Part shown: piece after piece, positions 2,809 through 51,688 of the stretch
Numbering within the stretch: the first letter of the stretch is position 1
Layout: every line of letters begins with the position of its first letter
Source of the DNA: an uncultured Bacilli bacterium
GTDB lineage: Bacteria > Bacillota_I > Bacilli_A > RF39 > UBA660
Length of the DNA stretch: 64,000 nucleotides
NCBI GenBank assembly: GCA_944350485.1
Contig: CALVPE010000074.1
Coordinates: forward strand, 13,989 to 77,988
Direction of reading: 5' to 3'
The notes under the pieces: model-generated
Told to the model about the DNA's origin: nothing
What the model saw: only the letters and a program-made list of their open reading frames with translations
Databases searched by the model: none
Position numbers and translations under genes: made by a program

Positions 2809-3423
2809 TTAATTAAACCATCTAACAATTGGTTCACCTTTAAAACCTTTTTGCCATACAAACCAAGCATAGCAAACAGCAGAACTACCAATATTAGAAA
2901 AATCACCATTCATAGCACATTTAATTCTAGATGAAGACACAAAAATATATTTTGGTGGATTGTTTTCAAAAAACTTTTTTCTTTCTTTACCTTCTAAAAA
3001 TTGAATTTTTAAAAACATACAAACATATCTACCTTCTTCAATTAATTCTAATGAGTGTTTACAAAAATCTAATGCCATAGAATATGGTGGATTAGTTACA
3101 ATATCACCATTCCATTTATTCTGTATCATTAAAAAATCTTCTCCATATCTATATGAAATACTAGGATAATAACCTCTATCAATTAAATCTGTTGCTAAAC
3201 CTAATTTGTTATGATCTTCAAATACTTTTGCTAAATGTCCACCACCCACACAATTCTCCCAAATATTATCTAATTGTGGCATTAATTCTAATAACATTTC
3301 ACCAGCTTTTGGGTCTGTTGCATAAAAAGCATTTTTTTCATAATCATGTTCGCAATGACTATTTGCACCTAAACATTTAAAAATAGAATTTTTATCTCCT
3401 GTCCAGTCTTTATTTTGTGTCAT
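2809..3423 (-). CDS. DNA methyltransferase (N6-adenine/N4-cytosine type, NPPY motif)
   Basis: DIVTNPPYS catalytic motif IV. Confidence 0.65.
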   Translation of the reverse strand: MTQNKDWTGDKNSIFKCLGANSHCEHDYEKNAFYATDPKAGEMLLELMPQLDNIWENCVGGGHLAKVFEDHNKLGLATDLIDRGYYPSISYRYGEDFLMIQNKWNGDIVTNPPYSMALDFCKHSLELIEEGRYVCMFLKIQFLEGKERKKFFENNPPKYIFVSSSRIKCAMNGDFSNIGSSAVCYAWFVWQKGFKGEPIVRWFN

Positions 3424-3434
3424 TTTTATTTTAA

Positions 3435-3884
3435 TTATTTATTAATAATAAAATTATAATGATTATTTGAATAAAAATATTTAAAAAGCCAAGATTCTTT
3501 TCTCATTATAGTATTTTGATACCAATCTCCTTCATTTTCTTCATTATTTTCAAAAAATTTATTAACAACTTTTCCATTATCTAAAACAATAGTTAATATT
3601 TGTCTAACTATTAATTTAAATTGACCTTTTAAAATTTTTATTTTATCTAATAAATCGCATAATATATCATTATTTTCATTTAATATAATATAAATTAATT
3701 CATGAATATTTATTCTATTAACTATATAAACATGTGTTAAATGTTTTATACTATCTTTGTTTTTTTCTTCATCTTCAACTTTTATGCAAAACTTACTAGA
3801 TTTAATTTCTACATTATCAATCATAATTTTTTCGGTTTCTTTATCAATTACACTACAATAATATATAAAATTATACTCTTTCAT
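3435..3884 (-). CDS. hypothetical protein
   Basis: ORF only. Confidence 0.35.
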   Translation of the reverse strand: MKEYNFIYYCSVIDKETEKIMIDNVEIKSSKFCIKVEDEEKNKDSIKHLTHVYIVNRINIHELIYIILNENNDILCDLLDKIKILKGQFKLIVRQILTIVLDNGKVVNKFFENNEENEGDWYQNTIMRKESWLFKYFYSNNHYNFIINK

Positions 3885-3892
3885 TTCTTTTT

Positions 3893-4618
3893 TTAATTAT
3901 TTAACAATCTTTCATTCATAATATTATAATAAAAATTATTAATTTCAATACCTATAAAATTTCTATTGGTATTTTTGCATGCTATACCTGTTGAACCAGC
4001 ACCAGCAAAACAATCTAAGACTAAATCATTTTCTTTTGTTGTTAGTTTGATTAAAATTTCTAATAATTTTATATTTTTTTCATTAGGATGCAAATTTTTT
4101 GATGCTCTTTTCTCTGTTGCAAAACATATTTTAGTATCCCAAAAGTTAGGATAAGCATAAGTAAATGGTTTAGGATTTTTATTTCTTTTATCTTTTAACC
4201 ATTCTTTTGAAGTAGGTATGAAATCAACTTCATTTAATGGTTTTCCCTTTCCTTTTGAAAATACTAAAATTGGTTGAAATTGAAATCCAAAATTATTTTT
4301 AGGACTAGGTGATCCATTATAAAAAGAACGAGTTGCTATAATGTTTTTATAATTAAATCCAGCTTTAATACCTTCTTGTATCCAATAATGAATTGTTTTT
4401 ACACCAACAAATAAAATCAAATAAGAATCTTCCTTTAATATTCTATACCATTCTTTATACCATAAAGGCATTTGTTCTAAAATATTAGATAATGAATCAT
4501 CATAGAAATTGTTTTTAAAATTAACTCCATATGGTGGGTCTGTTAATATTAAATCTATACTATTGTTGGATATATCTTTTATTATATCTAAACAATCACC
4601 ATTATATAAACCTGTCAT
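3893..4618 (-). CDS. DNA methyltransferase, beta-class (N-terminal DPPY, C-terminal FxGxG)
   Basis: LILTDPPYG near the N-terminus and DCFAGAGSTGIAC near the C-terminus. This is the circularly permuted beta-class N4/N6 MTase layout. Confidence 0.8.
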   Translation of the reverse strand: MTGLYNGDCLDIIKDISNNSIDLILTDPPYGVNFKNNFYDDSLSNILEQMPLWYKEWYRILKEDSYLILFVGVKTIHYWIQEGIKAGFNYKNIIATRSFYNGSPSPKNNFGFQFQPILVFSKGKGKPLNEVDFIPTSKEWLKDKRNKNPKPFTYAYPNFWDTKICFATEKRASKNLHPNEKNIKLLEILIKLTTKENDLVLDCFAGAGSTGIACKNTNRNFIGIEINNFYYNIMNERLLNN

Positions 4619-4930
4619 TAAGATACTATTCCTTTATATTGTTAATATTTTTGCCATATAATTCATAATATTTTTCTATATTATCACAAATATTTATAGT
4701 ATATATTGTATATTCAGAACAATATCTTCTTCTTCCTACTAAACATTTATAAATTTGTTTTTCTATTTTATTATTAGATTTATTGCATAATTCTATTAAT
4801 TTTTCTTTTTCTATTTTTGTTTGTTTATTAACTTTAATAGAACTAACAATTGTAAGAAAAATTCCTAAAAATAAAATAATATATGAAAAAGTTAATGTAA
4901 ACTTTATTGCATTTATTTTTATAAAACCCC

Positions 4931-5371
4931 CTAATATTCAGTTTTTTTATGTATAGTTTTCCATTGATTAGCTTTTTTCCATTCAATGTAATCAAAATAA
5001 TTTCTACAACCACTTTTACCAAAAAGACCTTTCCAATATGTCATTGGTTCATTTTTTAAAAGATTAGAATATTGTTCTAATATATATAAAATATTTTTAT
5101 GTTCTACTTTTTTTCTTAATTTATATTCTTGTAAGTAGGCTTTTAATAAGTTTAACAACCACAAAACATTACCATTACTTTCTTGTAGCCATTTTTGACA
5201 AGGATGATTTTGATAACATTCTTTATATAATCTATTATCTTCAACACCCTTTAATCTAAAAAAAGTGCTTAACAATTGTGTTGTTTCTAAAATCATTTTA
5301 TTTAATAAGATATCATCTAATTCTTTTGCATTAGCTTCAAAATTATTTATATAAAACATGAATATATTCAA
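4931..5371 (-). CDS. hypothetical protein with weak resemblance to the T4 endonuclease V (DenV) pyrimidine-dimer glycosylase family
   Basis: Size about 146 aa. C-terminal PMTYWKGLFGK resembles the endoV C-terminal PTWYKYYGK. The N-terminal catalytic region is not convincingly matched. Confidence 0.3.
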   Translation of the reverse strand: MNIFMFYINNFEANAKELDDILLNKMILETTQLLSTFFRLKGVEDNRLYKECYQNHPCQKWLQESNGNVLWLLNLLKAYLQEYKLRKKVEHKNILYILEQYSNLLKNEPMTYWKGLFGKSGCRNYFDYIEWKKANQWKTIHKKTEY

Positions 5372-5462
5372 ATTAATTCCTTGTTATTTTTTATAATATT
5401 AAAACCATTTTTTTAAAAGTCAATATAATATCTATATTTTATTGTTAGTCAACTACCCCCAG

Positions 5463-6622
5463 CTAAAGCAAGGAGCTTGTCAGTTCACAGTGAGAAACAA
5501 CTTTCTCAACTCCCTGACCATAAAGGGACGTTGCATCCCCATATTTTCCATAATTGAGTATATTTACAGAAGCATTATAATCTCTATTATGAATAGTGCC
5601 ACAATTAGGACAAGTCCATTCTCTAATAGATAAATCTTTTACTTTATCATTTTTATAACCACAATGATTACAAATTTGACTAGAAGCAAAAATCTATCTA
5701 CTTTTTTTATAGTTCTTCCATACATTTTTGCTTTGTATTCTAACATACTAACAAATTTACTAAAACTACATTCCATTATCTTTTCTGCTAATTTATAATT
5801 TTTAATCATCCCACTAACATTAAGATTTTCAAGATATATAACTTGGTTCTCGTTTATAATATCTTTACTAATATTATGTAGATAATTATTTTTTATATTT
5901 TCAATTTTTTCATATATTTTTGTTAATTTTAATCTTGTTTGTTTTCTTCTATTACTTCCTTTTTTTCTTCTCATTAATTCTCTTTGTGTTCTTTTTAGTT
6001 TCTTTTTTAATTTAATTTGTTTTTTATCTTTCATTATGTTTTTATATGTTTTACCATTAGAGCAAACTAATAATTCCTTTATTCCTAAATCAATTCCAAT
6101 TTCATTTTTAGTAATTGATAAATATTTTCTATTTTCTTCAACTAATATAGAAACAAAATATTTGTTAGTTGGTGTTTTTGATATTGTAACACTTTTTATA
6201 TTTCCTTTTACTTCTCTATGTTTTTTTATTTTAACATATTTTATTTTTGGCAATTTTATTTTATTATTTTGTAATTTTATATTGTTATTGACATTGTTAG
6301 TTTTATATGTTTGCTTTCCATTTTTACTATGAAATTTTGGTAATCTTTGTTTTCCTTTATAAAAATTCTTATAAGCAGTCTCTAAATCAATTTTAGCATT
6401 ACATAATGCTAAACTATCAATATCTTTTAACCATTTATATTTTTCTTTGTAATATGATAAAGAAAATAATTTTCTCTGTATTCCATATTCTTTATATTCA
6501 TTATAATTATAATTACTTTGTTCTAAATATTTATTATATATAAATCTAGTAGCACCAAAACATTTCTCAAAATATTCTTTTTGAGTTTTATTTGGATATA
6601 ATCTAAATTTATATGCTAACAT
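5463..6622 (-). pseudogene. tnpB: tnpB (TnpB/OMEGA RNA-guided nuclease family) interrupted by a 1-nt frameshift in a homopolymer run
   Basis: N-terminal MLAYKFRLYPNKTQKEYFEKCFGATRFIYNKYL is canonical TnpB. The ORF in the track stops at 5639. One T added to the T5 run (plus-strand A-run around 5688-5692) restores ...[52 protein letters not shown]..., the zinc finger plus RuvC-III, ending at 5463. Confidence 0.8.
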
Positions 6623-8321: not shown

Positions 8322-10511
8322 CTATTTTTTGCATTTCCATGAAAATAAAGCTTTTCCAGTAATAATATTTCCGGTAACTCTATTTATTAAACAATCTTTA
8401 AATCCTTCTTCTTTTGCTAATATATAATCTTCTGCTTTTCCAAATTTATCATAAGTTTTTGTACAGTCAACAAAAATTGGTTTTTTACCTTCTTGAAATC
8501 TTACAAGTCTTCCAACAGATTGTATTAACAAAGACAAAGACATCATTTGTCTAGCATTTATTATACAATCTAAACTAGGGCAATCAAAACCAATATTTAA
8601 AGCATTAACATTAACTAATATTTGTTTATTATTATTTTTAAATTTTTCAATTATTTCTTGTCTTTGTTTTTTAGGTGTATCTCCATAAATTTCCATAACT
8701 TCGTAACTCTTTTTTCTTAAAGTATCACATATTATATTAGCTTGTTGTTTACAACTAGTTATTATAAGAATCTTATTTTTTATAGGAAAAAATTCTTCAA
8801 CTGCTTTTATTGTATTATCTATTCTATCTTGTCTAGTAGTATATTTAACTATACTTTCTTCCGTATAATCACATCCTGTTGAATTTACTTGTAATTGTGA
8901 CAAATCAAAACCATTACTATAATCTATATATTCTGGTTTCATAATATAACCAGCTTCCATTAAATCCTTTAATTCCATTTTATAAACAATAGATCCAAAG
9001 AAAAATGGATGAATACGATTTAACATCATTAGAGAACCTGTATAGTATTTTTCACCACCATCATAACAAAATCTATTTACAAGACGATACGGGGTAGCGG
9101 AAAAAGAAAGTACTCGACTACATTTTATTTCTCCAAAAAATTTTGAATACATACCATTTGTATTTTGAGGATTTACTGTATGACAATTACCAGAAATAAA
9201 AGTCAATCCATCACTTCTAACTACTATTTTATGATTTGGGACTTCTACACAATAAACGTAATTATTATAATCTTGGATTATTTGTTTATTCGCTGCCTGC
9301 AAACTTCTATAATCGCTATCAAAAAAAATTACTCTATATAAAGTTTTTCTATTGTCGCCTCTTTCTCTTTGCTCCATTACTGTTCTATATCCAGCTTGTG
9401 TAGCTATTGCATTAACAAAATCTACATTATCTTTTATAATAGAAGAATAACTTTTTGGCATTTCATTTTTTCTAGTTCCATCCCATAAACATATTTCTTC
9501 TATAAAATCTCTTGCTCTATCATACCCCATATTTATATTAAAACATTTAGATAAATATTTTGCTCGTTTATTTAAAAAATCATTACCTAATAAAATATGC
9601 CATGCTTCATATCCTTCTCTTGTTATATTTAATTGTTTAATATTTGTCATGTTTTTTGTTAATAATTTCCATCTATCTTTTTTTCTTTGTTTTTTTAAAG
9701 AAATACTATAACGACCAACATCTTTTTTATTACGGTTAAAACTAACTGAACCATCAGCTTGTAAAGCAACCAAGACTCTTTCAAAATCTGTAAGTAAAAC
9801 ATTATTTCCTGTCCCCTTTCCTGCACAAATAAGTTGATTTTTACTAGAAGCACTATGTCCGACTGTTAAATCTTTTACTAAACAATTATTTATTGTATAT
9901 TTGTCCGAACTAATTTTTCTTCTATAAACTTGATTATGATTTGGCGTCATTAAGCAACCTCTGATATTTTTATAATTAGAGAAATTTATTTTTATCATTT
10001 CACCATTATGCTTCCTTTTTATGTATCTCAATGGTTTCACAAATTCTATTTTACCATCATCATATTGCGCAACTAATTCTGTTTGGTCTAAATCTTTAAA
10101 TTTTTTAAAACCTCTATCAGTTAATATTTCTACACCACCATCAAAACACTCATCTATTATGCAATTTTTTACATCTTTAAATAATTCTGGATGTTTATAT
10201 GCAGATTGTATAGTAGAAAATATAACATTTTTATCTGTTTCTTTTCTGTCTTTTCCAGCAGAAAAAACACTAGCTTCATAACCATAACTTTCATATTTAG
10301 ATAAATTTTGTTCTAATATTTCTTGTGATGGTTGAAATACTATTGTTTTATCTTGTAATTCTTTTGCTATATTTGCTATTACTATTGACTTTCCAAAAGC
10401 TGTACATGCTTGCATTATAATTGGTTTTTTAGAATTTTGTAAATAGTATAAGCCAGTTTTAACAGCAACTTTTTGATATTCTCTTAATTGTATCATTTTT
10501 TTTCTTTCCAA
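8322..10511 (-). CDS. SF2 DNA helicase (DECH box) interrupted by an intein
   Basis: Walker A QACTAFGKS, motif II IIDE|...|CHT, motif III LSFSATP. A 321-aa insertion lies exactly inside the DECH box. Confidence 0.75.
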   Translation of the reverse strand: MERKKMIQLREYQKVAVKTGLYYLQNSKKPIIMQACTAFGKSIVIANIAKELQDKTIVFQPSQEILEQNLSKYESYGYEASVFSAGKDRKETDKNVIFSTIQSAYKHPELFKDVKNCIIDECFDGGVEILTDRGFKKFKDLDQTELVAQYDDGKIEFVKPLRYIKRKHNGEMIKINFSNYKNIRGCLMTPNHNQVYRRKISSDKYTINNCLVKDLTVGHSASSKNQLICAGKGTGNNVLLTDFERVLVALQADGSVSFNRNKKDVGRYSISLKKQRKKDRWKLLTKNMTNIKQLNITREGYEAWHILLGNDFLNKRAKYLSKCFNINMGYDRARDFIEEICLWDGTRKNEMPKSYSSIIKDNVDFVNAIATQAGYRTVMEQRERGDNRKTLYRVIFFDSDYRSLQAANKQIIQDYNNYVYCVEVPNHKIVVRSDGLTFISGNCHTVNPQNTNGMYSKFFGEIKCSRVLSFSATPYRLVNRFCYDGGEKYYTGSLMMLNRIHPFFFGSIVYKMELKDLMEAGYIMKPEYIDYSNGFDLSQLQVNSTGCDYTEESIVKYTTRQDRIDNTIKAVEEFFPIKNKILIITSCKQQANIICDTLRKKSYEVMEIYGDTPKKQRQEIIEKFKNNNKQILVNVNALNIGFDCPSLDCIINARQMMSLSLLIQSVGRLVRFQEGKKPIFVDCTKTYDKFGKAEDYILAKEEGFKDCLINRVTGNIITGKALFSWKCKK
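9186..10148 (-). other. Intein (321 aa) with LAGLIDADG homing-endonuclease domain, inserted in helicase motif II
   Basis: Begins at C of CFDGGVEILTDRG and ends ...FISGN followed by +1 Cys of CHTV. Block B has T..H in CLMTPNHNQ, the LAGLIDADG-like motif is VLVALQADGSVS, and block F is YVYCVEVPNHK. Excision restores IIDECHTV. The penultimate residue is Gly rather than His. Confidence 0.7.
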
Positions 10512-11224: not shown

Positions 11225-11525
11225 CTTCTTTTAATATTTTTAATAAATCTTCACTAACTTTTTGATTAACACAAAAATTTTTATCATTTTTTTCTAATTT
11301 ATTAAGCTTATTTTTTAATACATTATATCTATTAATATAATATTTATTTTCTTCTTCACTTTTATTAAAATCTTCTTTTAATATATTATTTTTTTCTTGA
11401 ATATATAATAAATCTTCTTGTAAATTTCTATTAATATATTGTTCCATTTTTATTTTTTCTTTTAACAAAGATATATAAATAATTAAACATAATATAATAC
11501 TTATAAACAATAATTTTTTTATCAT
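11217..11525 (-). CDS. putative i-spanin (N-terminal TM plus periplasmic coiled coil)
   Basis: N-terminal TM LLFISIILCLIIYISLL followed by a charged heptad-like region. Paired with the lipoprotein gene downstream. Confidence 0.45.
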   Translation of the reverse strand: MIKKLLFISIILCLIIYISLLKEKIKMEQYINRNLQEDLLYIQEKNNILKEDFNKSEEENKYYINRYNVLKNKLNKLEKNDKNFCVNQKVSEDLLKILKEDV

Positions 11526-11526
11526 T

Positions 11527-11949
11527 TTATATAAAAAATTTTTGAATAATAATCATTAACACTGCACCACCAGCACCTGATAAAAAATTATAAAATATTT
11601 TTATATTTTTTTTAGTAGTAGTAATATCTTTTACAAAATCTTTAATTTCATTTATAGCCCCCTTTAATTCCTTAATTTCATTAATTAAACCTTTTGAATA
11701 ACAGCCATCTCCTTTTAAAAACATATTTATTTGTTCTAAATTTTTTTCTATTTGTTCTATTTTATGTTTTTGTATATTTTGTTCATCTTCTATTTCTTTT
11801 ATATTTTCATATATTTTAGATTTGCAATCCTTATTTATCATATTTTTATTTAACATATCAGCTTGTCTCTCCAAAATTTCATTGTGGTTATTGGTTGTTT
11901 TTACAAATGTTTCTACAACTTGTTTTAAATTATCTAATGTTTCCTTCAT
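11527..11949 (-). CDS. hypothetical coiled-coil protein with C-terminal TM segment
   Basis: C-terminal FLSGAGGAVLMIIIQKFFI. Confidence 0.35.
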   Translation of the reverse strand: MKETLDNLKQVVETFVKTTNNHNEILERQADMLNKNMINKDCKSKIYENIKEIEDEQNIQKHKIEQIEKNLEQINMFLKGDGCYSKGLINEIKELKGAINEIKDFVKDITTTKKNIKIFYNFLSGAGGAVLMIIIQKFFI

Positions 11950-12635
11950 TTTCTAAATTTCTTTATTTTTAAAATTAATAAATAAATACAAGGGAATATA
12001 TATTCTGACTTATATTCATATCCTTTAATTTGATTTAAAACATATCTTAAACTTCTTAAACAATTGAATCTAAAATAAAATGTTCTTTTTTGTCTAGCAT
12101 GTTGTGATAAAAGATTTTTTTCCCAATCTCCATTTAAATTTTTAAAATTAAATCCAGTATCTATAATTAAATATTTTTCTTTTAAATAATTTAGAGTTTT
12201 ATCAGTAAAAGGTATTTTTTGTAAAGTTTTAGCTTCATATCTCATCTGATATATATTTTTATTTATAATTAAACCTGCAGAACTATATGATAGACCAAAT
12301 ATTGATAATATAAATTGTTTTATTTTTTTAGGTTTATAAAAAATAATAAGTACATTATTATTATTTATTTCATCGCTTTTTATATAAGAAAATAATTTAC
12401 AAAATAAAAAATAAAATAAAAATAAAGATTGTATTATATAATATATAGAATAATTAATATTAAATATATAATTTAAAAAAGAAAAAAATATATCTATTAT
12501 AAAAAATATATTTAATGCTCTTAATATAAAATATTTATACTCTAATTTTAAATAATTATCAATTAGAATATATAATAAAATTATATAATATAAATTTTCT
12601 ATAATAAAATTAAACATTACTTCTATTGTCATCAT
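11946..12635 (-). CDS. hypothetical polytopic membrane protein
   Basis: Several hydrophobic segments in the N-terminal half. Confidence 0.35.
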   Translation of the reverse strand: MMTIEVMFNFIIENLYYIILLYILIDNYLKLEYKYFILRALNIFFIIDIFFSFLNYIFNINYSIYYIIQSLFLFYFLFCKLFSYIKSDEINNNNVLIIFYKPKKIKQFILSIFGLSYSSAGLIINKNIYQMRYEAKTLQKIPFTDKTLNYLKEKYLIIDTGFNFKNLNGDWEKNLLSQHARQKRTFYFRFNCLRSLRYVLNQIKGYEYKSEYIFPCIYLLILKIKKFRK

Positions 12636-12840
12636 TTAAAAAATTATCTAGCTCCCTTAATATAATTTTTTTATTTTTATTGTTGTAACTATTATTAGCT
12701 ATTAAATCTTTATTTATTTTTTCTAAATCTTTATTGTTAATAATATCATTTTTTTTATTTTTAGCAAAAATTTTATCAATACTTTGCTGAAAATAAGATC
12801 TTCTTTTAATATTTTCAAATGATTTTTTTGTTAAAGCCAT
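12610..12840 (-). CDS. hypothetical protein (first gene after a late-promoter motif)
   Basis: ORF. AGACTTCCATT motif lies about 50 bp upstream. Confidence 0.35.
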   Translation of the reverse strand: MALTKKSFENIKRRSYFQQSIDKIFAKNKKNDIINNKDLEKINKDLIANNSYNNKNKKIILRELDNFLNDDNRSNV

Positions 12841-21532: not shown

Positions 21533-22153
21533 ATGACAATATTAATAAAAAATAGATTTAATAATTTATCAATGGATAATTTAATAATTAATGATTATAA
21601 TAAAAATTTAATTACATATTTAAAAGATTATAAAAAAAATATTGAAGAAAAAATAAATAATTACGAAAATATTATTTTAACTGGAAGTGTTGGAAGTGGA
21701 AAAACTTTTATTATGAGAAGTTTTTTTAATGATATCCAAAAAATTAAAATTAAAAGACAAAAAAGTTTTTATTATAATCAAATAGAAGAAGAAGATTATA
21801 TTTCTTCTATGTATGTAAATATGTATGATTTAATAAATGAATTAAGAAAAGAATATAAAGGTGAACATGTTGATAGTTTATTATTTACATGTGATTTGTT
21901 ATTTATTGATGAAATAGGTATACAATTTTGTACAGATGCAGAAAGACAAATACTTTTTAAATTAATAAATTATAGATATGAAAATTTTAAACCAATATTT
22001 TTAATTTCAAATCATCCTTTAAGGTCCACCAATGAAATTAAAGGTCTTTATTATATTTTAGGTGATAGAATAATGGATAGAATTTGTGATTGTAATTGTA
22101 AAGTATTTTGTTTTAATAATATAGAATCAATGAGAAAAAAATGTTTGAAATAA
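21533..22153 (+). CDS. DnaC/IstB-like helicase loader ATPase
   Basis: Walker A GSVGSGKT and Walker B LLFIDEIG. Confidence 0.7.
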   Translation: MTILIKNRFNNLSMDNLIINDYNKNLITYLKDYKKNIEEKINNYENIILTGSVGSGKTFIMRSFFNDIQKIKIKRQKSFYYNQIEEEDYISSMYVNMYDLINELRKEYKGEHVDSLLFTCDLLFIDEIGIQFCTDAERQILFKLINYRYENFKPIFLISNHPLRSTNEIKGLYYILGDRIMDRICDCNCKVFCFNNIESMRKKCLK

Positions 22154-24180
22154 AATTATATGATATTGAATGTGAACAAGTATTATTAGGATGTTTAATA
22201 TTAAATTCTGAAACATATTTTAAAATAAATTCAATAATAAAAAGTGAGTATTTTTTTGAAAGTGCTCATAAAGATATTTTTATTTTACTAAAAAATTTTT
22301 ATGAAAATGATAAGGTACAAGATTTAAAATCATTATCAGGCGAAATAAAAAATATTTTAAGAAAACATCATTATACAGATGATTATTTAAAATGCTTATT
22401 AAATATGGGAGCAGGAATAATTGATGTAGAAAGTTATTGTAATATAATTAAAAATTTTTATTTAAAAAGACAATTGAAAGATTTAGAAGAAAAAATTGAA
22501 TTAGAAATTAAAAAAAATACTAAAGCAGAAGATATATATGATAAAATAAAAAACAATTTAGAAAATATAGGAGAACAATCAAAAGAAGAACAATATACTT
22601 TTGATAATGCTATGGATATATGTGCTAAAAGAATATTGGATATAGAAAATACTATTAATAATAAAAATGAACCTGATAATATTATAAAAACTAATATTAT
22701 AGATTTTGATAGAAAGTTAGGTGGAATTTTTAGAAAAAAATTATTTGTTTTAGCTGGAAGGAGTTCGTCGGGAAAAGCGTTACCATTAGATACTAAAATA
22801 TTAACTAATAAAGGATGGATAAAAAATAAAAATATTAAAATAGGTGATAAAGTTATTGATCCATTTGGTAAAGAAGTTGTAGTTAATGGTGTTTTTCCAC
22901 AAGGAAGAAGAAGATGTTATAAAATATTTTTTGAAGATAGAATTATAGAAGCGGATAAAAATCATTTATGGGAGATATTTTTTGAAGATGAAATAGAACC
23001 AAAAATATTAAGCACTAAACAAATATATAAAATATTAAAAGATAAAAAAAATAATAAAAAGTTATGTATAAGGCTTTTTTGTGGAAAATATGGGCTTAAT
23101 AATAATAAAAGTATTTTATTTAAAAAATATGAAGCTAGAAAAAATTTTTTATTTAATTATCTTAATAAAAGAAAATATGAAATAAAAAGTTATAAAAAAT
23201 CTTTAATATTGCAACAATTAGCTTTTAGTTTAGGCATGAAGTGCCATATTATTTTTGATAAAATAAATAAAATATATAAAATAGATATTTATAAAAATAT
23301 TTCTAAAAAATTATATATTAATAAAATAGAAAAATCAAATTTTAAACATACACAATGTATTAGTGTTGATAGTAATGAACATCTCTATGTAATTCAAGAC
23401 TATATTGTTACTCATAATACTACACTTTCTTTACAAATTGCATTAAATGTAGCTAAACAAAATAAAAATGTTTTATTTTTTTCACAAGAAATGTGTTCTG
23501 AAGAGCAGGGAGATAAAATATTATCTAATGTTGCACAAATTAATTCTTCAAATATAAGAAAATCAGATGTTACTTATGAACAAATACAAAAAATGAAAAA
23601 TAATATGGAAGAAATAAATAAATTACCATTATATTTTAATGAAAAGTTAGGTATTAGTGGTGATTATGTAAGAAATGTTATTAAAAATTTTGAAAAAAAA
23701 GTCGGTAAAATTGATTTAGTTATTATAGATCACTTGCAAATAATGAGAACAGAAGATAATCAAAATAATAGGGTATTAGCTCTTGATAAATTATCTATGG
23801 ATTGTAAAAATATAGCAAAAGAATTTGATTGTGGCATGATATTGTTAAGTCAATTATCAAGAAAAACAGAAGAAAGAGATGATCCACGACCACAATTATC
23901 CGATTTAAGAGAAAGTGGTGGTATTGAACAAAATGCGGATGTTGTAGTTTTTATTTATCGGGAAGCTTATTATACAGAAAGAAAACTAAATGGGTTATTA
24001 GAAACAGATCCAAGATTCACTAGTTTATCTAATCAATTGAAAACTCAAAAAAATCAAGCAGATTTAATAATACAAAAAGATAGGGGGGGAAATTTAGGAA
24101 ATATAAAATTATATTTTGTCCCTGAATTTTCTTATTTTTCCGATATATATACTAAATATCTAGAAGATGCAAAAAAATAA
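22141..24180 (+). CDS. dnaB: Replicative DNA helicase DnaB interrupted by an intein in the P-loop
   Basis: N-terminal ECEQVLLGCLILNSE. P-loop LAGRSSSGK|...|TTLSLQIALNVA split by a 214-aa insert. C-terminal ...IIDHLQIM...ESGGIEQNADVVVFIYRE. Confidence 0.85.
   Translation: MFEIKLYDIECEQVLLGCLILNSETYFKINSIIKSEYFFESAHKDIFILLKNFYENDKVQDLKSLSGEIKNILRKHHYTDDYLKCLLNMGAGIIDVESYCNIIKNFYLKRQLKDLEEKIELEIKKNTKAEDIYDKIKNNLENIGEQSKEEQYTFDNAMDICAKRILDIENTINNKNEPDNIIKTNIIDFDRKLGGIFRKKLFVLAGRSSSGKALPLDTKILTNKGWIKNKNIKIGDKVIDPFGKEVVVNGVFPQGRRRCYKIFFEDRIIEADKNHLWEIFFEDEIEPKILSTKQIYKILKDKKNNKKLCIRLFCGKYGLNNNKSILFKKYEARKNFLFNYLNKRKYEIKSYKKSLILQQLAFSLGMKCHIIFDKINKIYKIDIYKNISKKLYINKIEKSNFKHTQCISVDSNEHLYVIQDYIVTHNTTLSLQIALNVAKQNKNVLFFSQEMCSEEQGDKILSNVAQINSSNIRKSDVTYEQIQKMKNNMEEINKLPLYFNEKLGISGDYVRNVIKNFEKKVGKIDLVIIDHLQIMRTEDNQNNRVLALDKLSMDCKNIAKEFDCGMILLSQLSRKTEERDDPRPQLSDLRESGGIEQNADVVVFIYREAYYTERKLNGLLETDPRFTSLSNQLKTQKNQADLIIQKDRGGNLGNIKLYFVPEFSYFSDIYTKYLEDAKK
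22777..23418 (+). other. Intein (214 aa) in the DnaB Walker A motif. It has a non-nucleophilic Ala1, ends ...VTHN, and the +1 residue is Thr
   Basis: Starts ALPLDTKILTNKGW (block A), ends ...DYIVTHN|TT. Excision gives GRSSSGKTTLSLQ. Ala at position 1 plus Cys in block F (TQCISVD) suggests a class 2/3-type intein. Its size leaves room for only a reduced endonuclease domain. Confidence 0.75.
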
Positions 24181-25171: not shown

Positions 25172-25217
25172 AAATAAAAGCTGGATTTTTTCCAGCTTTT
25201 TTTATGAAAAAATATTA

Positions 25218-48894: not shown

Positions 48895-49122
48895 TTATTT
48901 TTTACTTATTATTAAAACAGAAATTATAAAAAATATAAACATTAGAGAATATTTTAAAATATCAAAATATGTACTTGCATTTAATAAAAAAAATGGTGTA
49001 TAAATCATACATGCAACACAAATAATAATACATATATTGCTAATATTTTCTAATATTTTTATTATAATATTTTTTAAAAAAAGATAAAATTTATTTAAAA
49101 TCATTGATATTTTTTTAAACAT
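48895..49122 (-). CDS. small hydrophobic protein between terminase and portal
   Basis: Two TM-like segments. Confidence 0.3.
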   Translation of the reverse strand: MFKKISMILNKFYLFLKNIIIKILENISNICIIICVACMIYTPFFLLNASTYFDILKYSLMFIFFIISVLIISKK

Positions 49123-51688
49123 AACTTATATTTATTCTCCTTTGTTTAGTTTTATTAAAATAATTTCTAGCCCAATTAATTACTTGTGATAAAGAATCAA
49201 CTGCATCATCATGTACACTATCATTTTTGCTAGGAAATACATTTAATTCTCTCTCTATTTCTTTTATAACATATATTTGTTTTTTGTCAAGTCTAGTAAT
49301 TTTATTATATTCTTTTGGAAAAAATACTCTACCATTATTTATTTCAAGGGAACATGATTTTGCTCTATCTTCTTTTGATAATTTTGGAGAAAAACAAATA
49401 ACAATTTTATTTTTTCTAGGATCTTTTTTTTCTAATAAACCACCATATATTAATATTTCAAGTTCATTAATAATTTCATAACCACTACTTTTTTCTTCAA
49501 CTATTATAAAGTCTGGTTGATATTCAATATACCAATCAATAACTCTTCTAACAAACAATGGTGTTTTTTCTTGTGTTAAACTAGCTTCTAAAAGATATGA
49601 TTGTAATTCTTTTCTTTTTGTAATATTATTTGTATAAGTATTAAATCCCCATAATTGCATTGATTGATAATCATTTTCTCCATTAGATGAATCTATTGAA
49701 ATAACTCTTTTTTCAAAAATAATATCTTTTATATTATCATTAGTATATTTATTAATACAATTTATATTAAATATTTTTGTATCTTCTTCTTCACATTTTT
49801 GAAACATTTGCCATTGAAAATCAATATCATTGTTTATTAAGTTTCTATGAAGTTCAAATCTATTATCATCAAATTTATCTGGAAATATAAAATCTCCATT
49901 TTTGACAAACCATTTTCTATAAGGACTAATAAAATATTTTCCAGATAATAATTTATTATTTTTTGCATCATAATATTCTTCTACTTGATTTTCTATTTTT
50001 GCAGGTATTTCTATATGTTTCCATTTGGAACTGTTAGGAAGTCTTAATAAATATCCAGTTGTGTCATTTTCTGCTATTCTTTGCATACAAATGATTAATG
50101 GAGCTTCGGAACCTATTATACCCCTATCCCTTGTAATACAACCACTTACAATTTCATTCATTTTTGTTAAATAAGTATCTTTTTCTGTTTTAAATCTAGT
50201 ATAATCATTTGGATCATCAAAAATTGTAAAATCAGAATCGGTACCTGTTATATTACCTTGCATTGTTTTTATTGTAATACTACCACCACCTTCTATTTGT
50301 TCTCCATAATTAAATTTTTCTAAGAAAAATACTTCTTCTGTATTTTTTTGATTTTTATCTATTTTAACTTGTGGAAATAATTGTTGATAATAATCAGAAT
50401 TTAATATTTCTTTAATATGTCTAACATATTTATTTCTAACGGTATCAGCACCGGAAATAATTAAAAATCTAGTATGTGGAAAAAATCCAATATAAAGACA
50501 TACAAAAGATATTAAACTATTGGTATTATGGCAAACTGTATAATTATCAAGTAAATATAAATGATTACCATCTAATTCAAAACCATAATATTTATCATAT
50601 CCCATGCTTTCAATATTAAATTTTTGTAAAGATAAATATATAGGATTATCTTTAAAATGATTTTTTTTATTTTTTAATGATATTTTTTCTATATTACCAT
50701 GAATATATATTTTATAAAATTGTTTATTTTTAATAAATTTTGTATACTTTTTTGTATAAAATCCTAAACTTCTTGATAAATCAATTATAAAATTTGTTTT
50801 TTCTAAATTATTGCAAATTATTTCAATTTCATTATTTGATTTTATAAATCCCCTTCCATCAACTATTCCGGATAATAGTTTTAATCTTATATCTTCATTA
50901 TTAAAAATATAATCATTTAAAAATTCTTTATTTTTTTCTATTTTATCTAATATTTTAAATTTCTTATTATTAAAAAATTTATTATTTAGTTTATTTAATT
51001 CTATTGTATGTAATGTTTTATTTTTATTTGATAAATATAAACCAACAAAATAAGGATTTATATCTACTTTTTTATATTTATAAAGTATCTTATTTTTTAC
51101 CATTCTATGATTTTTTTTAAAATCTTCATCTTGTTTTAAATAGTCATCAACAGTGATTTTAATAAAATTTTTATCATTTATATTATATAAATATAAAATA
51201 TGTTCTTTATTACAAGTAAATTGTGTATCATCATCCATAGTAATTTTATACATATTAGAATAACTACTTCCTAATGATATGACATTTCTAGGAGTACTAT
51301 CATCTCCCATTATTTTATCTCCTATTACTATGTCTTCAACTTTTTTTAAAGTTCCATCATACATTCTTATTAATGTACCTTTACCATGACATTTACCATG
51401 TCCAGGTGGAATATTAATAATTAAAAATTTATTTCTTTTTTCTAAAATTTCTTTTAAAAAATCAAAATAATACTTAAAATACCAATTAAATTTAAAATTT
51501 ACTTGCGGTTCACATATTCTACAACATATTTCATGAAACAGAACCATATTATTTATTAACCAGTAATAATCTGGATAAAAATTACCATTTTCATCAACTT
51601 CTAATGTTATATTATCAGTTATTCTTTTAGAAAAAACTGTTTTATAATATTCTAATGTATTTTTTTTATTTTCTAACTCAGAAGTCAT
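49115..51688 (-). CDS. terminase large subunit interrupted by an intein in the ATPase P-loop
   Basis: NIPPGHGK|...|TNSLISF reconstitutes the Walker A motif PPGHGKT after removal of a 289-aa insert. The C-terminal nuclease-like region includes FIIVEEKSSG and DDAVDSLSQ. Confidence 0.8.
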   Translation of the reverse strand: MTSELENKKNTLEYYKTVFSKRITDNITLEVDENGNFYPDYYWLINNMVLFHEICCRICEPQVNFKFNWYFKYYFDFLKEILEKRNKFLIINIPPGHGKCHGKGTLIRMYDGTLKKVEDIVIGDKIMGDDSTPRNVISLGSSYSNMYKITMDDDTQFTCNKEHILYLYNINDKNFIKITVDDYLKQDEDFKKNHRMVKNKILYKYKKVDINPYFVGLYLSNKNKTLHTIELNKLNNKFFNNKKFKILDKIEKNKEFLNDYIFNNEDIRLKLLSGIVDGRGFIKSNNEIEIICNNLEKTNFIIDLSRSLGFYTKKYTKFIKNKQFYKIYIHGNIEKISLKNKKNHFKDNPIYLSLQKFNIESMGYDKYYGFELDGNHLYLLDNYTVCHNTNSLISFVCLYIGFFPHTRFLIISGADTVRNKYVRHIKEILNSDYYQQLFPQVKIDKNQKNTEEVFFLEKFNYGEQIEGGGSITIKTMQGNITGTDSDFTIFDDPNDYTRFKTEKDTYLTKMNEIVSGCITRDRGIIGSEAPLIICMQRIAENDTTGYLLRLPNSSKWKHIEIPAKIENQVEEYYDAKNNKLLSGKYFISPYRKWFVKNGDFIFPDKFDDNRFELHRNLINNDIDFQWQMFQKCEEEDTKIFNINCINKYTNDNIKDIIFEKRVISIDSSNGENDYQSMQLWGFNTYTNNITKRKELQSYLLEASLTQEKTPLFVRRVIDWYIEYQPDFIIVEEKSSGYEIINELEILIYGGLLEKKDPRKNKIVICFSPKLSKEDRAKSCSLEINNGRVFFPKEYNKITRLDKKQIYVIKEIERELNVFPSKNDSVHDDAVDSLSQVINWARNYFNKTKQRRINISYV
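50525..51391 (-). other. Intein (289 aa) with LAGLIDADG homing-endonuclease domain in the terminase Walker A motif
   Basis: Cys1 at CHGKGTLIRMYDGTL (block A). Block B T..H in FTCNKEH. Two LAGLIDADG-like motifs (YFVGLYLSNKNK and LSGIVDGRGF). Block F YGFELDGNHLYLL. Terminal TVCHN with +1 Thr. Confidence 0.8.

Follow-up and report, generated by a model that had tools for sequence, protein, structure and literature searches.

We analyzed a 64,000-nucleotide stretch of DNA from an uncultured Bacilli bacterium (contig CALVPE010000074.1, positions 13,989 to 77,988 of the forward strand; referred to here as the window) with respect to a 214-codon insert in its gene for the replicative helicase DnaB. 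The insert is very probably a splicing-competent class 3 mini-intein, located at the P-loop (DnaB-b) site of a phage helicase and descended from an endonuclease-bearing ancestor. An earlier note on this DNA had placed an intein of 214 amino acids (aa) directly after the Walker A lysine of DnaB. This placement was borne out, as the junctions are fixed by homologues of 465 aa.

Positions 22777-23418 of the plus strand translate into 214 codons without a stop (ALPLDTKI...DYIVTHN) and lie wholly within one open reading frame (ORF) of 679 aa at 22141..24180; the ORF list shows no other frame of at least 60 aa across the insert. The 679-aa product matched the Pfam DnaB N-terminal domain (E=4.4e-15) and, in two pieces of which the best lies at residues 425-667, DnaB_C (E=3.6e-65), together with NCBIfam TIGR00665 DnaB (E=7.4e-96) and PHROG 19, a DnaB-like helicase family (E=2.4e-83). 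With slashes marking the junctions, the insert and its flanks read GRSSSGK/ALPLDTKI...DYIVTHN/TTLSLQ. A search of a large protein collection yielded two intein-less homologues (P0006 and P0007) of 465 aa, i.e., 679 minus 214. Both read GRSSMGK/STLALQ and align without gaps on either side of the insert in an alignment (A1) whose columns for precursor residues G211 and K212 are invariant. Because these insert-free proteins align gap-free, we placed the junctions at precursor Ala213 (intein Ala1) and Asn426 (intein Asn214). The insert directly follows the Walker A Lys and comes before the next residue of the motif, Ser/Thr, as the DnaB-b site requires, and in silico excision yields the canonical Walker A motif GRSSSGKT. 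The Ser or Thr that follows the Walker A Lys coordinates Mg2+. In mycobacteria, the same P-loop position of DnaB, "insertion site b," holds the class 3 mini-intein DnaBi1 (PMC6195587), and insertion of inteins at P-loops has been termed "classic" (PMC5050341). The parts of the precursor gene are as follows:

22141..24180, plus strand: dnaB precursor ORF, 679 aa plus stop, phage replicative helicase (ORF list, Pfam, NCBIfam, PHROG).
22141..22776, plus strand: N-extein, 212 aa, ending in GRSSSGK, the first part of Walker A (alignment A1).
22777..23418, plus strand: predicted class 3 mini-intein, 214 aa, Ala1 to Asn214 (homologues, PDB matches, model).
22777..23061, plus strand: N-terminal splicing region, residues 1-95, blocks A and B (HMMER alignment, model, ratio of nonsynonymous to synonymous substitution rates [dN/dS]).
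23062..23316, plus strand: homing-endonuclease remnant, a single LAGLIDADG half-domain at about residues 96-180, outer limits approximate.
23317..23418, plus strand: C-terminal splicing region, residues 181-214, blocks F and G (HMMER alignment, model).
23419..24177, plus strand: C-extein, 253 aa, remainder of the RecA-like ATPase domain (Pfam DnaB_C, A1).

Serines are present three to five residues before the proposed junction, and a class 1 intein could in principle begin at an upstream Ser or Cys, for instance at one of the serines of GRSSSGK. We checked this start, which the earlier note had raised against its own assignment, and the gap-free alignment of the intein-less homologues to ...GK/T or S... 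excludes it. An upstream start would also strip the invariant Walker A Gly-Lys from the spliced product. Moreover, Ala1 aligns with Ala1 of the solved DnaBi1 intein of M. smegmatis (PDB 6bs8). A Lys precedes the intein in 114 of the about 117 related copies picked up when the 120 proteins listed from the protein-collection search were scanned with profiles of the two splicing regions (N- and C-terminal). A class 1 intein with an upstream start has next to no chance of being correct.

By definition, class 3 comprises inteins whose residue 1 is not a nucleophile and covaries with a Trp at block B position 12 (B12), a Cys at F4 and a Thr at G5 (the WCT triplet), and whose position +1 is Thr or Ser (PMC2807308; PMC5050341). 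As judged from the alignments, the DnaB insert carries this signature in full. Ala1 is encoded by the codon GCG at 22777-22779, and position 1 holds no Cys, Ser, or Thr. Residues D60, H63, and W65 are in register with Asp62, His65, and Trp67 of DnaBi1 in the HMMER alignment; H63, L64, and W65 are invariant in a second alignment (A2), and W65 is found in all related inteins. In block F, the motif TQCISVD (intein residues 192-198) contains Cys194, which aligns with the catalytic Cys118 of 6bs8 and with the engineered Cys107 of the mutant intein 6riz and is invariant in A2. Both Ala1 and this block F Cys, which the earlier note had pointed out, were confirmed in the translation and in the alignments. 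At the C terminus, Thr212-His213-Asn214 is in register with Thr137-His138-Asn139 of 6bs8 (HMMER). Every listed relative with a resolved C-terminal region has the block F Cys and the order W…C…T-H-N, with T or S at position +1. The key positions are as follows:

22954..22971, plus strand: block B core D60-K-N-H63-L-W65, with the DxxH motif and the WCT Trp, B12 (HMMER alignment).
23356..23358, plus strand: Cys194, block F position 4, predicted initiating nucleophile (alignment with 6bs8).
23380..23382, plus strand: His202, block F position 13, aligned with the His of "pehly" in 6bs8.
23410..23418, plus strand: block G Thr212 (WCT Thr, G5), His213 (G6), and Asn214 (G7, predicted to cyclize) (alignments).
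23419..23421, plus strand: Thr+1, codon ACT, predicted C-extein nucleophile and Walker A Thr after splicing (A1).

The earlier note had left the choice between class 3 and class 2 and had proposed an alignment to class 3 DnaB inteins, which puts the WCT residues in register with 6bs8. The class 3 assignment was upheld by W65, C194, T212, and Thr+1, and the class 2 assignment was dropped, as the WCT triplet is complete. In class 2 splicing, of the KlbA type, the +1 residue is itself the nucleophile for the N-terminal junction, with no branched intermediate on block F. Ala1 is a feature of class 2 inteins as well; however, this class is defined by the absence of the WCT triplet, its hosts are archaeal KlbA proteins, and the characterized Mja KlbA intein uses Cys+1 (PMC2807308). 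Unlike class 2 inteins, the DnaB insert has W65, C194, and T212, all family-invariant, and Thr at +1, and its nearest solved relatives belong to class 3. We consider class 2 splicing very improbable.

The comparison with solved inteins led to the same relatives. Searched alone against the PDB with HMMER, the 214-aa sequence matched 6riz (E=7e-8) and 6bs8 (E=3.5e-6), and the alignments to both take in intein residues 1-66. A profile built from 22 family members gave E values from 5.6e-23 to 1.4e-18 for 6riz, 6rix, 6bs8, and 6riy. An AlphaFold2 model based on the family alignment reached a pLDDT of 93.5 and a pTM of 0.88, with the N-terminal splicing region modeled in the beta-strand secondary structure of the HINT domain (pLDDT 93-98). 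The top PDB matches of the model in Foldseek were 6bs8, 6rix/6riy, and 6riz (E of about 1e-7, target-normalized TM of about 0.8). Sequence, profile, and structure matches alike are far beyond what chance would give. The predicted fold of the DnaB insert is a HINT fold like that of class 3 DnaB inteins.

The closest known systems are the DnaB-b class 3 mini-inteins of mycobacteria, namely M. smegmatis DnaBi1 (6bs8), M. leprae DnaB, and M. chimaera MchDnaB-1 (6rix/6riy). They share with the window intein the host protein, the insertion point, Ala1, DxxH and Trp, the block F Cys, the THN ending, and the lack of a working endonuclease. They are its best structural matches, yet no more than about 16-18% of the structurally aligned residues are identical. 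The crystallized mycobacterial chains measure 139-146 aa, compared with 214 aa for the window intein, which has a LAGLIDADG half-domain predicted to fold with confidence where DnaBi1 has an unresolved linker. The window intein is also phage encoded, in a genome of 22% GC, and is followed by Thr+1, whereas the mycobacterial mini-inteins have Ser+1. The class 3 prototype, MP-Be DnaB of mycobacteriophage Bethlehem, is likewise phage borne, with a non-nucleophilic residue 1, WCT, Thr+1, a penultimate His, and a terminal Asn; compared by its published description, it has 341 aa and is close in length to the endonuclease-bearing sister inteins of 339-342 aa described below rather than to the 214-aa intein (PMC2807308). 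The best PDB sequence match of the window intein is gp41-1 from a cyanophage-like gp41 helicase (6qaz; WCT-grafted mutant, 6riz), which shares the THN ending and an identical block B numbering (His63, position 65). Natural gp41-1 differs in being a class 1 intein with Cys1, Phe65, and Asp107; the mutations in 6riz are C1A, F65W, and D107C.

The descent of the mini-intein was traced through its alleles. Three homologues of 679-688 aa (P0001-P0003), 55-96% identical to the 679-aa DnaB, carry the same short insert. Four others of 805-817 aa (P0004, P0005, P0008, and P0009, from loci L002-L005) have at the same place a 339- to 342-aa insert with the Pfam domain LAGLIDADG_3 (PF14528). These full-length sisters share with the window intein the site, the class 3 signature, and the phage neighborhood, and the splicing regions of P0004 and P0005 are 50-68% identical to it; they differ in length and in having both LAGLIDADG motifs, each with its terminal acidic residue. 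Compared with them, the 214-aa intein lacks the entire first LAGLIDADG half (…HPYLLGVLLGDG… and its sheet), and its second half also carries shorter deletions, the exact end-points of the deletions being uncertain. The set of deletions, which removes about 125 aa including motif 1, is common to the window intein and P0001-P0003. The motif 2 helix reads FLFNYLNKRK, versus LLNGILDTDG in the sisters, with the catalytic Asp changed to Arg, and Pfam gave no LAGLIDADG or HNH match in the insert at E<=1. By its sequence, the mini-intein is predicted to be nuclease-dead, with a lone degenerate half-domain left. The reduced endonuclease for which the earlier note had seen room at most corresponds to one LAGLIDADG half-domain without the catalytic acid. 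The four short alleles (that of the window and those of P0001-P0003) are colinear and measure 214-215 aa, which points to a single decay of the endonuclease in their common ancestor.

In a structural comparison list for the remnant, the TliVMA endonuclease intein (7.3) was followed by WhiA (6.9 and 6.7), I-Tsp061I (6.2), PI-PkoII (5.2), and I-DmoI (4.7). In a first MAFFT alignment, helix 118-132 had fallen on the first LAGLIDADG half. After realignment of the middle segment, this placement was dropped in favor of the second motif, because the latter needs fewer deletions and fits a single half-domain fold.

We examined selection and composition across the precursor gene. Between the window and its 96% identical relative on contig L001, dN/dS was 0.127 in the intein versus 0.099 in the exteins; exteins and splicing regions gave 0.08-0.13, and the C-terminal splicing region showed 4 synonymous and 0 nonsynonymous differences. 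The N-terminal splicing region gave 0.11-0.33. Among distant alleles, dN/dS was 0.15-0.36 in the splicing regions and 0.56-0.61 in the remnant, values that are only indicative, as dS is saturated. The four mini-intein alleles have drifted as far apart as 52-61% identity, with saturated dS, and all catalytic residues are kept. The intein had 7.5% GC at third codon positions (GC3), compared with 6.6-9.9% for the exteins; it matches them in composition and is thus no recent arrival. Taken together, the purifying selection and the host-like composition point to a mini-intein that has long been resident and is competent to splice. Since a DnaB with a split P-loop would be of no use as a helicase, efficient splicing is the simplest reading.

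Several observations weigh against a working class 3 intein. In structural alignments, the insert is no more than about 16-20% identical to solved class 3 inteins, and by itself it drew no family from Pfam or NCBIfam even at E<=1; because these collections match nothing, the identification rests on PDB sequence and profile matches, homologues, and structure. The differences within the intein of the close pair are few (13 nonsynonymous and 19 synonymous), and dS in the distant pairs is saturated. The analysis establishes the junctions, the residues, the fold, the relatedness, the selection, and the decay of the endonuclease; splicing itself and its chemistry are inferred. In addition, the WCT triplet is no guarantee of splicing, as Ala1 and WCT grafted on the class 1 intein gp41-1 caused cleavage instead of splicing; the signature alone is insufficient (PMC7664689). 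This last point would suit a splicing-dead relic, in which the insert stays in place or merely cleaves, leaving DnaB nonfunctional or with a disrupted P-loop. The endonuclease has already decayed, and there is a precedent in the Arthrobacter "DnaB" intein, reported to be a pseudogene (PMC3196547) and carrying a variant WDT triplet (PMC2807308). In the window intein, however, all catalytic positions are intact, purifying selection acts on exteins and splicing regions in the close pair, and at least five related phage contigs keep dnaB beside its loader gene. Moreover, from what is established for P-loop NTPases, an ATPase could not function with 214 residues inside its Walker A motif, a point also argued in PMC6195587. 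We regard a splicing-dead relic as improbable and favor a splicing-competent class 3 mini-intein.

According to our model, which follows the published class 3 route (PMC2807308; PMC6195587), the 679-aa precursor, with its Walker A motif split into GRSSSGK and T, would not bind or hydrolyze ATP normally. With His63 assisting and Thr212 and Trp65 holding it in position, Cys194 would attack the Lys(-1)-Ala1 bond and become the site of a branched thioester. Transfer of the N-extein onto the Thr+1 side chain would then produce the standard branched ester of block G. Cyclization of Asn214, helped by His213 and His202, would free the intein, and an O-to-N acyl shift would create a native peptide bond in a 465-aa DnaB with a whole GRSSSGKT P-loop. 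The ancestor would have been an intein with a LAGLIDADG endonuclease, of the kind still found in the sister phages. Loss of the first endonuclease half and of the catalytic acid of the second would have made autonomous homing impossible, and the mini-intein may persist because imprecise loss would destroy the essential P-loop.

A further residue raises the question of regulation:

22915..22917, plus strand: Cys47 codon, aligned with Cys48 of M. smegmatis DnaBi1 (HMMER alignment).

In DnaBi1, oxidative stress links Cys48 to the catalytic Cys in a reversible disulfide, which renders splicing redox sensitive, and Cys48 is also needed for splicing (PMC6195587). Cys47 is kept in the window and in P0001-P0005, i.e., the six closest DnaB inteins; only 13 of the 117 listed relatives have a Cys there. 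By analogy, the phage might have turned the intein into a switch that makes its DNA replication conditional, through a Cys47-Cys194 disulfide and/or a DNA-binding or regulatory half-domain. A reversible disulfide would let the helicase mature only in a reduced host cytoplasm. The nuclease-dead half-domain, which is predicted to be folded, is partly constrained, and resembles the DNA-binding protein WhiA in structure, would perhaps bind DNA or regulate instead of being debris. Such a switch is doubtful; if it were confirmed, Cys47 could carry redox-controlled splicing over from mycobacteria to phages.

The type is frequent. The related copies reside in DnaB, SNF2/SF2 helicases, PhoH, RecA, UvrD-like, TraD-like, and AAA proteins, according to precomputed Pfam annotation, and Ala is the first residue in 85 of the about 117 P-loop inteins listed. 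The pattern GK/…W…C…THN/T or S is common to nearly all of about 115 of them. For nr, a survey of 2020 gave a total of 1701 class 3 inteins (PMC7891396). The statement in the earlier note that Ala1 inteins are comparatively rare does not hold against these numbers: as a rule, the P-loop inteins of phage ATPases start with Ala. Distant relatives were also found in records of cultured Vibrio, Klebsiella/Serratia, and Aeromonas phages, mostly in genes annotated as helicases. PHROGs matches on the insert (terminase, primase, and loader) were rejected as having no functional meaning; these are host-protein families that touch the insert region only. The Pfam annotations of P0001-P0003 consist of DnaB domains alone. 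Divergent AT-rich class 3 mini-inteins are probably undercounted in automated annotation.

The window is a tailed-phage genome or prophage. It contains a conserved phage replication module with genes for a dCMP deaminase, a DnaC-like loader, DnaB, a GapR-like protein, and a dUTPase, near which lie genes for SSB, RecT, a PD-(D/E)XK nuclease, a prohead protease, and HK97-type capsid proteins. It also encodes a tape-measure protein, and homologues of the capsid and protease occur in syntenic relatives. The gene directly upstream of dnaB is the following:

21533..22153, plus strand: DnaC/IstB-like helicase loader, overlapping the start of dnaB by 13 nucleotides (nt) (Pfam IstB_IS21, E=1.5e-14).

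The loader-dnaB pair is also present in L001, L005, L008, and L009. GC content is 17-28% throughout the window (mean, 22%). GC skew takes negative values at minus-strand genes and positive values in the two plus-strand blocks (20-26 kb and 56-64 kb), and the 64 kb yielded no tRNA gene. A megablast search with 20 kb around dnaB against 50,697 phage records gave no match, pattern scans with DnaB over IMG/VR and GTDB genomes gave no close relative, and an exact-sequence search with the window DnaB gave no record; the related contigs come solely from metagenome assemblies. At 11470-12645 (plus strand), L001 has an extra gene of 391 aa between the dUTPase and DUF7841 genes, with a weak match to Pfam Band_7/SPFH (E=1.7e-5). 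The window has a 46-nt spacer at the matching place (25172-25217), i.e., an accessory-gene indel between near-identical phages. On the 84-kb contig L002, which encodes P0005, dnaB is flanked by genes for a 921-aa class I aminoacyl-tRNA-synthetase-like protein and an IS605 OrfB/TnpB-like protein (1-613 and 3089-5854), which are unusual neighbors for a phage replication module.

Profiles of the class 3 N- and C-terminal regions run over all ORFs of the window revealed no second class 3 intein; a weak match to the C-terminal profile (E=1.7e-4) fell in a terminase-like ORF whose intein starts with Cys. The 64-kb phage window holds three inteins in all, the other two being the following:

50525-51391, minus strand, in ORF 49115..51688: second intein, 289 aa, NIPPGHGK/CHGKGTLIRM...DNYTVCHN/TNSLIS.
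9186-10148, minus strand, in ORF 8322..10511: third intein, 321 aa, VKNCIIDE/CFDGGVEILT...GLTFISGN/CHTVNP.

The 289-aa intein has Cys1, Thr+1, and the LAGLIDADG-like motifs NPYFVGLYLS and LLSGIVDGRG, and matched Pfam Hom_end_hint at residues 100-387 (E=7.7e-18). It looks like a class 1 intein at the same kind of GK/T site as the DnaB intein. After in silico splicing, its P-loop host showed weak, subthreshold matches to ResIII and Terminase_6C and is probably the terminase large subunit. The 321-aa intein, with Cys1 and Cys+1, splits the DExH Walker B motif of an SF2 helicase (ResIII at 7-122, Helicase_C at 577-672); its match to Pfam Intein_splicing was weak and below the cutoff (E=0.0045). 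Both inteins appear to be of the class 1 type.

Class 3 inteins, their association with phages, the GK/T site, and a class 3 mini-intein at the same DnaB site have already been documented and structurally solved. The DnaB mini-intein described here belongs to this large, known family as an ordinary member and adds little to biology. For annotation, it is of value in that, without the match to an intein model, the helicase would pass as an odd 679-aa DnaB. For protein engineering, it offers a small, naturally occurring class 3 intein, with Lys(-1)/Thr(+1) as its native junctions, that might be tested as a tool. Together, the endonuclease-bearing, mini-intein, and empty-site alleles form a clean series through the intein life cycle of invasion, endonuclease decay, and persistence.

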